Positions 33,308 through 60,225 of a DNA stretch of 64,000 nt are shown here, piece after piece (the stretch's first letter is position 1; the number at the start of each line of letters is the position of its first letter). The notes beneath the pieces were generated by a model. The model was given only the letters and a program-made list of their open reading frames with translations, did no database searches and was not told the DNA's origin. Source of the stretch: a virus. Taxonomy: Duplodnaviria; Caudoviricetes. The position numbers were made by a program, and so were the translations under genes. The stretch lies in IMG/VR virus record IMGVR_UViG_3300021960_000017; one strand, 5' to 3'.

Positions 33308-33382
33308 TCCAGGATAGCTCAACGGCAGAGCCATCGGCTGTTAACCGATAGGTTGTAGGTTCGAATCCTACTCCTGGAGCCA
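33308..33382 (+). tRNA. tRNA-Asn(GTT)
   Basis: Full cloverleaf, anticodon loop CTGTTAA, GGTTCGAATCC, encoded CCA. Confidence 0.97.
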
Positions 33383-58576: not shown

Positions 58577-59464
58577 ATGAAAAAGAATTTTTATCTATTA
58601 TATCCGCCAGGGTATATGGGAACTTATTTAAATTGGATTATTCAAGTAAGTGATAAACAAGGCAATGCTGTACTAAATCCAGTAACAGAAAATGCTAATG
58701 CCCATAATCATATAAAGCGACCAACACATCAAGTTATTCTTAAACATGGCATTTGGCGCTTATTAAATAAACCTCAAGAAAAGTTGGTTCATTGTGTTCA
58801 TACAACTAGTACAGCAGAAGACTATACTGCAAGGTCAGCTTGGGCAGCATACTTTATTTTGCTAAGTGACCCAGATCCTGTTATTATTAATATTCATGAT
58901 AATAATGATGATGATATTTATAAATTTGGTGCACTTAACACATATACTAAATGGAAACCTTTTCTGAAAACCAGAGAAGTATGGTTGCCTGAACTTTTTT
59001 CAAAAGCTCTTGCAGGTGACACGCCGCCCGAATTTTTAGCAGAGAATTGGAAAAAAATTTTCCAAAACAATAGTCCCTTAAATATGGAAGAGGTATATTT
59101 TAATTTGGATAAGCAACGTGCCTGGTTGGATATTCGTATACAAGAAAGTCCAGATGAGGTATTTGAGAACGAATATAACATCAGTAGAGATATCAAACCA
59201 AATACAATCTTTGACATAAACATGACTGACATAATGAAAGCAAATTTTATTGATAAGTTTGCTGAAATTTTGGCACTAACTGATAGCGCAGAATATGATT
59301 TTACTTATGCTAAAGAGTATCATCAAACTTATGTTAAAGCACAAAATAATTTTTTATTATTTGATGCAATTAAGAAATTTAGAGAAGATGGTGTTCGCGT
59401 CGATTGGTGGGACACTAATCCTTTAACAAAATCTTTTTTTATTTTAGAAACAATGAATGGTTGA
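58577..59464 (+). CDS. hypothetical protein, possible sulfotransferase-like
   Basis: LLYPPGYMGTYLNWII N-terminus; AT-rich. Confidence 0.45.
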   Translation: MKKNFYLLYPPGYMGTYLNWIIQVSDKQGNAVLNPVTENANAHNHIKRPTHQVILKHGIWRLLNKPQEKLVHCVHTTSTAEDYTARSAWAAYFILLSDPDPVIINIHDNNDDDIYKFGALNTYTKWKPFLKTREVWLPELFSKALAGDTPPEFLAENWKKIFQNNSPLNMEEVYFNLDKQRAWLDIRIQESPDEVFENEYNISRDIKPNTIFDINMTDIMKANFIDKFAEILALTDSAEYDFTYAKEYHQTYVKAQNNFLLFDAIKKFREDGVRVDWWDTNPLTKSFFILETMNG

Positions 59465-59488
59465 CATAAACTCAGACTCGTTTATAAT
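59461..59488 (+). promoter_or_regulatory. sigma70-like promoter
   Basis: TTGACA-N16-TATAAT upstream of tRNA-Arg. Confidence 0.75.
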
Positions 59489-59506
59489 AATAATTATAGA
59501 ACATAA

Positions 59507-59582
59507 GATTCCGTAGCTCAGAGGATAGAGCATCCGCCTTCTAAGCGGATGGTCGCAGGTTCGAATCCTGCCGGGATCGCCA
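59507..59582 (+). tRNA. tRNA-Arg(TCT)
   Basis: GATTCCG/CGGGATC acceptor stem, TCCGC/GCGGA anticodon stem, loop CTTCTAA, encoded CCA. Confidence 0.97.
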
Positions 59583-59596
59583 TTTGGAGTAACTCG

Positions 59597-59974
59597 ATGA
59601 CGATGCATCTTGTAGGTCCTTATTTGACCACAACCAACTTCAGGCCTCGCAAGGCCAAGAACAAAAGCAAGGCACAACTTGCTACAGATGCAGCTCATGC
59701 AAAGTTTCTCAAGAAGATGGGTTATAAGGGGAATGGTGTCAGTGGTAGCACAGTAGTCTCCAAAACTAACAGCGAGGGTTCGATTCCTTCTTCCTCTGCC
59801 ATCCCTAGCATAGGTGATGGTGTCGGTTATAATCCAGGTATGTCTCGGCGTAAAGAAAATGTCTATAGTGGCGAGCGCAAACTGTTAGGCGTTGCCACTA
59901 TGCATAAATCCAATATGGTGCCAGTATTTTCCAGTGAAGATGCTGAAGCAATATCCAAGATGAGACGTGGATGA
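59597..59974 (+). CDS. conserved phage protein containing a nested tRNA
   Basis: GGAG RBS, MTMHLVGP start; C-terminus LLGVATMHKSNMVPVF..EDAEAISKMRRG. Confidence 0.75.
   Translation: MTMHLVGPYLTTTNFRPRKAKNKSKAQLATDAAHAKFLKKMGYKGNGVSGSTVVSKTNSEGSIPSSSAIPSIGDGVGYNPGMSRRKENVYSGERKLLGVATMHKSNMVPVFSSEDAEAISKMRRG
59727..59801 (+). tRNA. tRNA-Trp(CCA), nested in frame in the CDS
   Basis: AGGGGAA/TTCCTCT acceptor, GTGT/GCAC D-stem, loop CTCCAAA, GAGGG-TTCGATT-CCTTC T-arm, G73 and CCA. Confidence 0.85.
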
Positions 59975-60225
59975 AAACCATTATTCACATTAATAAGAAT
60001 CTAAAACAGTCTAACGATAAACATGGTAGAACACTACCAGTATGTCGTGTTGAAGTAGATGGCAAAACCTGGTATGGGAGTAGTGTAGACATTCTTGGTC
60101 CAAGTAGGATGGTATACAGTCCTGACAAGCCTAGACAGTGTGGTGCTAAACTGTGGATCGAAACAGATAGTGATGTAGTTATACACGACAAAACCACATA
60201 CAAGGAAATGGATCGCAGTTTATGA
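59971..60225 (+). CDS. hypothetical phage protein
   Basis: IIHIN...GPSRMVYSPDKP..CGAKLWIET. Confidence 0.65.
   Translation: MKTIIHINKNLKQSNDKHGRTLPVCRVEVDGKTWYGSSVDILGPSRMVYSPDKPRQCGAKLWIETDSDVVIHDKTTYKEMDRSL

Follow-up and report, generated by a model that had tools for sequence, protein, structure and literature searches.

As a rule, a stretch of DNA is taken to be either a transfer RNA (tRNA) gene or a protein gene, and an overlapping coding sequence is usually deemed an annotation error, so that such layouts would tend to go unannotated. The closest described system is found in Alphaproteobacteria, where, by bioinformatic prediction, selC, the gene of tRNA-Sec, lies within the 3' end of selB (Mukai 2021, Int J Mol Sci 22:4605, PMC8124441), an arrangement which that paper calls the first nested tRNA in a bacterial open reading frame (ORF). 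In the model proposed there, folding and processing of the tRNA destroys the messenger RNA (mRNA), and the two products are alternatives. According to the same paper, which cites Doublet et al. 2015, the mitochondrial cox1 gene of Armadillidium vulgare holds a tRNA-Lys. In the tRNA regions of T4-type phages, tRNAs and small ORFs are co-transcribed and tRNA content varies among close relatives; the authors of the SegB paper (PMC2330249) suggest that processing of the transcript lowers the expression of the ORFs in tRNA clusters. Full-text literature searches gave no description of a tRNA nested in a phage ORF, and the other papers found to cite PMC8124441 were likewise not on phages. Here, we describe a tRNA-Trp(CCA), at positions 59727-59801, nested in a 125-codon ORF (59597-59974, + strand) of the tailed-phage record IMGVR_UViG_3300021960_000017 (Caudoviricetes), of which one stretch of 64,000 nucleotides (nt), called the window below, was analysed. 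We consider it probable that this is a real elongator tRNA-Trp gene located in the part of the host gene that encodes a disordered linker, that both readings are under selection, and that the transcript is either translated or cut.

The tRNA-Trp had been proposed in an earlier note, made from the letters of the window alone. ARAGORN, a check suggested in that note, called it on the + strand, and Rfam model RF00005 matched 59727-59801 over positions 1-71 of 71, with a score of 49.6 bits (gathering score 29) and E = 1.8e-9. The anticodon loop, CUCCAAA, had seven bases, with U33 and a purine at 37; the T-loop read GGTTCGATTCC (GTTCGAnTC type), and the 3' end was GCCA, with the CCA encoded. In Escherichia coli, the identity set of tRNA-Trp consists of the anticodon CCA, the discriminator G73 and A1-U72. 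All three were present in the window tRNA; the A1-U72 pair, the G73 and the encoded CCA listed in the earlier note were thus seen in the bases. Two of its statements held in part. The tRNA measures 75 nt, the length of 25 codons, but is not codon-aligned: it begins at position 2 of codon 44 and gives residues 44-69. The G27-A43 mismatch, said to be the sole defect, was indeed the single non-standard pair in the Rfam alignment (27:43), but three wobble pairs (G3-U70, U13-G22 and G51-U63) occurred besides. The G3-U70 wobble (59729/59796) is atypical for Trp, and the two closest relatives have G3-C70 instead. An independent embedded tRNA-Trp, found in another locus (L184:8718-8791), likewise carried G3-U70. 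This pair is the main identity element for alanyl-tRNA synthetase, and mischarging of a G3-U70 tRNA-Trp with alanine is conceivable.

As far as comparison of sequences can tell, selection seems to keep this window DNA both as a tRNA and as a coding sequence. The same tRNA-Trp was present at the same place in two close relatives taken from other assemblies, L083 and L084 (91% and 76% protein identity, respectively), and in the alignment of the three the 75 tRNA bases varied at 2 positions in total, one of them being the change from G3-C70 in the relatives to G3-U70 in the window. Third codon positions differed between the window and L084 at 21 out of 42 and 26 out of 56 sites in the two flanks (47 out of 98 together), versus 1 out of 25 in the tRNA, and within the window clade the first and second codon positions of the flanks changed far less than the third (Trp-set codon-position statistics were taken from alignment A2, with the Pro set left out for its indels). 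Since the flanks vary mainly at third positions and the tRNA is near-invariant, the flanks evolve as codons and the middle as an RNA gene. In the clade bearing a tRNA-Arg, nucleotide diversity in the flanks was about 0.10 at first, 0.05 at second and 0.30 at third codon positions; inside the tRNA-Arg it was 0.03-0.07, without three-base periodicity. This pattern indicates that carrying a tRNA does not release a gene from selection on its protein reading.

At the level of the RNA, compensatory double changes were observed at 15 of the 22 pairs of the embedded tRNA-Pro (27 distinct sequences), with almost no pair broken, at 8 of the 21 pairs of tRNA-Arg (29 embedded sequences and the window's free-standing copy), and at 9 of the 20 pairs of the tRNA-Trp set (embedded and free-standing). 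The CCA end was encoded in all embedded tRNAs of the Pro, Arg and Trp sets. These data bear on whether the element is a tRNA-like RNA signal rather than a decoder, that is, a processing or stability element, such as an RNase (ribonuclease) P site limiting the life of the mRNA, that is never charged. The mismatch and the G3-U70 wobble of the window copy would fit such a signal, as would an unremarkable single-sequence fold. However, anticodon loops, identity positions and the encoded CCA were intact and conserved, and all four stems covaried in the embedded Arg and Pro tRNAs. Moreover, the embedded tRNAs, referred to below as cargo (Arg-UCU, Pro-UGG, Met, Ala, Thr, Trp and Leu-UAA), resembled free-standing tRNAs of related phage contigs, and the same tRNA-Arg(UCU) was free-standing in the window and embedded elsewhere. 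We regard a signal of this kind as highly improbable.

The occurrence of such loci was determined with a frame-blind DNA scan of IMG/VR and of JGI metagenomes, which combined a T-loop motif with MHKSN codons 87-117 nt later; the counts refer to the matches listed in each collection. The IMG/VR scan gave at least 120 loci. At least 107 of these were complete family genes with tRNAs, the frame being open through one to three tRNAs in every one; the rest of the matches listed were chance matches or were cut by contig ends. At least 14 architectures were distinguished among the matches listed, mainly Arg (34), Arg+Pro (24), Pro (20), Arg+Met (9) and Ala+Pro (5), with rarer ones containing Thr, Ala, Met, Trp or a long UAU tRNA. 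Each embedded tRNA was read in an open frame, often its sole open frame. Among the matches listed for the JGI metagenomes, at least about 100 tRNA-bearing loci were intact (four of them classed by eye, their N-terminal motif having been missed by the regular expression), two were intact with decayed tRNAs and one was frameshifted. The JGI set added Cys, Leu and Gln to the cargo, as well as the triples Arg+UAU-tRNA+Pro, Ala+Leu+Thr and Trp+UAU-tRNA+Pro. Overall, the tRNA-bearing loci of the family numbered at least about 200 over the two overlapping collections, with at least 10 tRNA species and more than 20 architectures, and had one to three tRNAs in the same linker. The long UAU tRNA (L004:3152-3244 and L119:5341-5433) measured 93 nt, with a 23-nt insertion in the variable region and an Rfam score of 59.4 bits; ARAGORN called it Ile(tat), and with its unusual long arm its identity is ambiguous. 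A possible second tRNA-like element with a T-loop motif was observed upstream of an embedded tRNA-Pro in the same ORF (L053:823-915, 93 nt), which ARAGORN reported as 'Gln ctg' at a relaxed threshold only.

As a control, free-standing tRNAs on related contigs were stop-free in 6 out of 49 cases when flanks of 60 nt on each side were included and in 3 out of 49 with 90 nt, versus 11 out of 11 embedded tRNAs of the control set. The window DNA itself was detected in estuarine and marine metagenomes from 13 studies, and DNA contigs of other studies matched the region with 0-2 differences; a single 553-nt contig covered the entire ORF in run X4, and overlapping contigs covered it in run X2. Since the region is reproduced in contigs of other studies and only 3 of the 49 free-standing controls were open, the arrangement is neither due to chance nor an assembly artefact. 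An ORF that is not translated across the tRNA would imply that its two parts are relics or separate small genes and that the frame arose by chance or from a gene caller. Gene callers do readily call ORFs through tRNAs, and 6 of the 49 free-standing controls were open with 60-nt flanks. Against this, at least about 200 loci were in frame across one to three tRNAs, with one exception, the cargo indels examined were multiples of three, the third-position pattern was seen on both sides of the tRNA in tRNA-bearing clades, and neither a stop ahead of the tRNA nor a conserved start or ribosome-binding site behind it was seen. An untranslated ORF is therefore hardly credible. These comparisons show that the tRNA is constrained as RNA and the flanks as protein, and that the frame is preserved. 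The dual coding put forward in the earlier note is in this sense borne out by near-invariant tRNA bases, compensatory stem changes, third-position variation of the flanks and a frame kept in at least about 200 loci.

The ORF belongs to a protein family described by the profile phrog_27048, which it matched with E = 1.1e-13 (residues 2-124 on profile positions 2-127 of 127). A large protein collection contained 1,737 metagenomic relatives, typically of about 127 amino acids and mostly aquatic. A tblastn search of 50,697 phage records revealed no cultured phage with a nested tRNA and only the annotated, tRNA-less homologues of Acidovorax phage ACP17 and Delftia phage W14; when a tRNA-bearing query was used, only translated tRNA-Pro genes elsewhere were matched in these records. 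In the family alignment, two conserved parts enclosed a hypervariable middle. The N-terminal part consisted of MTMHL..TTTN, a basic run and HAKFLKKMG (59597-59725, + strand, in the window), and the C-terminal part of VYSGERKLLGIATMHKSNMVPVF..DAE.IAKMRR (59802-59971, + strand, where the window reads IPSxGDGVG ... VYSGERKLLGxATMHKSNMVPVF..DAEAISKMRR). H34, L38, Y90, G92, ATMHKSN.VP and MRR were invariant in the family. The middle of many relatives looked like a translated tRNA, with GSNP, GSIP or GSTP, for example, derived from GGTTCGAnTCC. Aligning the homologues, another check suggested in the earlier note, thus showed that others carry tRNAs at the same place and that tRNA-less relatives have unrelated sequence there.

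AlphaFold (49 homologues) predicted a helix at residues 25-40 in the N-terminal part and a beta-hairpin followed by a helix in the C-terminal part, with an overall predicted template modelling score of only 0.25. The predicted local distance difference test score was below 50 at residues 49-71, with better-predicted N- and C-terminal elements on either side. Since the tRNA bases give residues 44-69, most of these residues would fall in the segment predicted to be disordered. Among family members outside the phage records, a tRNA-less one was located, possibly in a prophage, on a 551-kb scaffold of Rhodospirillales bacterium URHD0017 (L208, 439187-443543). Other genome matches were mostly short contigs of metagenome bins assigned to many phyla, and are probably phage contigs binned with bacteria. 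On a 335-kb contig binned as Neomarinimicrobiota, a distant family member had a transfer-messenger RNA gene (L220:241-585) about 1.4 kb upstream.

The cargo appeared to change rapidly. On a tree of the flanking protein parts only (79 alignment columns, many forks unresolved), 41 cargo changes were needed versus a minimum of 15, and different cargoes were found at very short distances. Four genes with near-identical flanks carried Pro, Ala, Ala+Pro and Arg+Pro and measured 381, 372, 435 and 438 nt, respectively; the indels compared among them (54 and 63 nt) were multiples of three, and the Ala-only gene retained the last ~19 nt of a tRNA-Pro as codons. Two metagenome contigs (L283 and L251) carried mutated copies of tRNA-Arg and tRNA-Trp, which were not called by ARAGORN and lay in frame in intact ORFs; they are apparent snapshots of a tRNA turning into protein linker sequence. 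These were the only two clear decayed copies, both in loci next of kin to tRNA-bearing ones. The possibility that tRNA-less linkers in general are decayed tRNAs was rejected, as ARAGORN at a relaxed threshold (80%) gave 0.50 hits per kb inside the ORFs versus 0.52 outside. The earlier note had also considered a tRNA hidden in, or captured by, a tolerant linker. Predicted disorder, the unrelated linkers of tRNA-less relatives and the two decayed copies bear this out as well, and such a capture does not compete with dual coding.

How far the position of the tRNA has a function is a separate matter. The linker may be a rare harmless site for a tRNA in a packed genome of translationally coupled small genes, with both products made, turnover by recombination between the tRNA genes of a tRNA-rich neighbourhood and no regulatory role. 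This explanation, which denies only the functional coupling, is a serious alternative for why the tRNA sits in the linker; we think it quite possible, if somewhat less than evenly balanced. In a similarity-ranked IMG/VR sample of 79 loci, 8 had a tRNA inside, 15 had a same-strand tRNA within 3 kb and 56 had none nearby. A passive site would account for the majority of members without a tRNA and for the unrelated sequence in their linkers, for decayed tRNAs that persist as linker codons, and for the frequent position of the family beside tRNAs (the 15 loci out of 79, some with a tRNA 10-30 nt away). It is also in line with upstream codons among which the one that the cargo tRNA reads was not over-represented, and with a locus (L200) that retains a 3' remnant of tRNA-Pro, which fits deletion by recombination. 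However, the same family has been reused for at least 10 tRNA species in more than 20 architectures, and no other tRNA was found within 3 kb in the eight similarity-ranked loci with a tRNA inside. This repeated reuse, together with the lack of other tRNAs nearby, suggests that the slot is no accident but the preferred home of the few tRNAs of these phages. Family genes without a tRNA inside are still tightly associated with tRNAs. Examples of tRNAs located 10-30 nt past the stop of the family gene were observed at L211:2367-2442 and, 30 nt after the ORF, in L018.

In the window, a predicted sigma-70-type promoter (59461-59488, + strand) showed TTGACA and TATAAT separated by 16 nt, with 12 out of 12 consensus matches. 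It was followed after 18 nt by a free-standing tRNA-Arg(UCU) (59507-59582, + strand; ARAGORN tct; Rfam 72.2 bits, full-length model), the end of which was 15 nt from the ORF start codon. The tRNA-Arg was itself stop-free in the same frame as the ORF, with a TAA directly 5' of it, and its homologue sits within the ORF in many relatives. A Shine-Dalgarno-like GGAG (59586-59589, + strand) was located 7 nt 5' of the ATG, and the same site read GGGAG or GGAGG in relatives of the window clade. The uninterrupted ORF with a ribosome-binding site described in the earlier note was accordingly found, open from 59597 to 59974. The next gene (59971-60225, + strand; 84 amino acids, phrog_8676, no assigned function) begins within the stop of the host gene (ATGA, 59971-59974), and translation of the two is therefore probably coupled. 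No terminator-like site was found on the + strand after the promoter up to 61200, and transcription from the promoter probably extends over the tRNA-Arg, the ORF that contains the tRNA-Trp and the small ORFs that follow; the position of the ORF downstream of tRNA-Arg, apparently on the same promoter, agrees with the earlier note.

ARAGORN called three tRNAs in the window (Arg, Trp and Asn), the third, tRNA-Asn(gtt) at 33308-33382, lying far from the other two. The G+C content of the host ORF and tRNA-Arg (59500-59950) was 46-52% versus about 26-37% in most of the neighbouring sequence and was raised in the coding flanks as well as in the tRNAs; this stretch may be a module exchanged between phages of different base composition. 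The window derives from a large tailed phage encoding a DnaB-like helicase, a DNA polymerase, a ribonucleotide reductase and virion proteins, and no close cultured relative was found.

Transcription of the region was assessed in four metatranscriptome runs from four studies, which had been chosen for containing this stretch. Each yielded one contig over the tRNA-Trp and the ORF (59696-59873, 59697-59845, 59684-59810 and 59672-59845), with a depth of 2-3.4 and 5-14 differences from the window. All four bridged the 5' border of the tRNA by at least 30 nt, and three out of four also bridged its 3' border by at least 44 nt. These contigs fit unprocessed transcripts of related strains, assembled contigs being unable to show processing or molecule ends. 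The comparative results call for full-length translation to matter, since the frame is preserved and codon-level constraint acts on both flanks, and for the tRNA to matter as an RNA.

As the simplest arrangement that satisfies both, a scheme can be proposed in which one early transcript starting from 59461-59488 would comprise the tRNA-Arg, the mRNA of the 125-residue protein with its tRNA-Trp, and further small genes. A copy covered by ribosomes would yield the full-length protein, to which the tRNA bases would contribute about 25 residues of disordered linker. On a copy free of ribosomes, the cloverleaf would fold, RNase P would cut at its 5' end, and an endonuclease and exonucleases would trim the 3' side back to the encoded CCA. 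Release of the tRNA-Trp would destroy that copy of the mRNA, leaving a 5' half without a stop codon and a 3' half without a start, and each transcript copy would end either as a protein template or as a tRNA. In the family as a whole, the linker would act as a slot in which tRNAs are gained, swapped, lost or decayed, only in-frame and stop-free outcomes surviving. The coupling of tRNA supply to protein shut-off by RNase P/E excision, raised in the earlier note, would be a possible consequence of such a scheme.

A stronger form of this idea is that the gene is a dedicated tRNA host, combining a linker for exchangeable cassettes, in which aquatic phages would keep their few tRNAs, with a translation-sensing switch that decides, copy by copy, between mRNA and tRNA. 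We hold this stronger form to be tentative and on the whole unlikely. If true, a slowing of translation on the early transcript would lead the switch to free phage tRNAs, and excision would shut off the protein and the coupled downstream genes. A feedback akin to attenuation, acting through those codons of the host ORF, outside the tRNAs, that are cognate to the cargo, was also considered and was not supported by codon counts: AGA made up 8% of the Arg codons in genes bearing tRNA-Arg(UCU) versus 19% in the others, CCA use did not differ with cargo, and the N-terminal part in the window had no Trp codon.

Several points weigh against the explanation favoured here. The window tRNA combines the G27-A43 mismatch with the G3-U70 pair, and its single-sequence fold gave no cloverleaf, with a z-score of 0.04, no better than shuffled sequences; it is therefore the covariance model and comparison, and not thermodynamics, that support the tRNA. 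No tRNA lay inside 71 of the 79 similarity-ranked members, so that nesting is optional and not essential to the protein. Searches of Pfam, NCBIfam, PADLOC, PDB sequences and the ESM Atlas gave no match that would indicate the function of the protein. The locus counts are not independent, since the IMG/VR and JGI collections share contigs. One locus among the matches listed (L279, LUMR01005561.1) had a broken frame: its tRNA-Arg is followed by a chimeric tRNA that begins as Met, switches to Pro in the T-loop and puts the C-terminal part out of frame. This locus may be a genuine recombinant or a chimera that arose when co-occurring variants were assembled. The RNA contigs were of low depth and came from related strains, with possible DNA carry-over. 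Finally, processing of the tRNA, its aminoacylation, translation across it and a regulatory consequence are steps that we infer.

If the two uses do compete for each transcript, the locus would link translation with the supply of tRNA during infection in a simple, natural way. Apart from any mechanism, it offers an unusually clean comparative proof of one stretch kept as tRNA and as coding sequence, and it shows a route by which a tRNA decays into an ordinary protein linker. With selC in selB as a precedent, this kind of arrangement was already known; what is new here is the exchangeable set of one to three ordinary tRNAs between two conserved protein parts of a phage gene.

Like the T4-type tRNA regions, the phage locus varies in its tRNA content, and for both, processing has been proposed to limit co-transcribed ORFs. 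The T4-type ORFs, however, lie between tRNAs and do not enclose them, and none of those tRNAs is read as codons. ORFs may also overlap tRNAs in the tRNA region of phage T5. The cox1 case of A. vulgare, as presented in PMC8124441, is similar in that the tRNA lies wholly inside a coding gene in direct orientation and processing is expected to cut the mRNA; it differs in being a reduced tRNA of 60 nt in an extremely compact organelle genome, a single case versus a family-wide slot.

The likeness to selB-selC is the closest. In both, the ORF is of bacterial type and its frame runs through a complete same-strand tRNA, some lineages retain remnants of a tRNA as codons, the ORF stop overlaps the next start, and the same transcript model, yielding either tRNA or protein, has been proposed. 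However, selC is a single special tRNA that forms a C-terminal extension, whereas the phage tRNA lies between conserved parts, at residues 44-69 of 125. In selB, no conserved domain follows the tRNA and selection on the frame is therefore hard to prove; in the phage genes, the position between two conserved protein parts makes it demonstrable. Moreover, SelB binds tRNA-Sec, whereas the phage protein has no assigned function, and a cargo of at least 10 tRNA species argues against a partner-specific link between protein and tRNA. Each phage gene carries one to three ordinary elongator tRNAs, of at least 10 kinds in all, and the cargo is swapped even among genes that are nearly identical. The phage locus represents a tractable test system of 0.8 kb for the selB-selC model.

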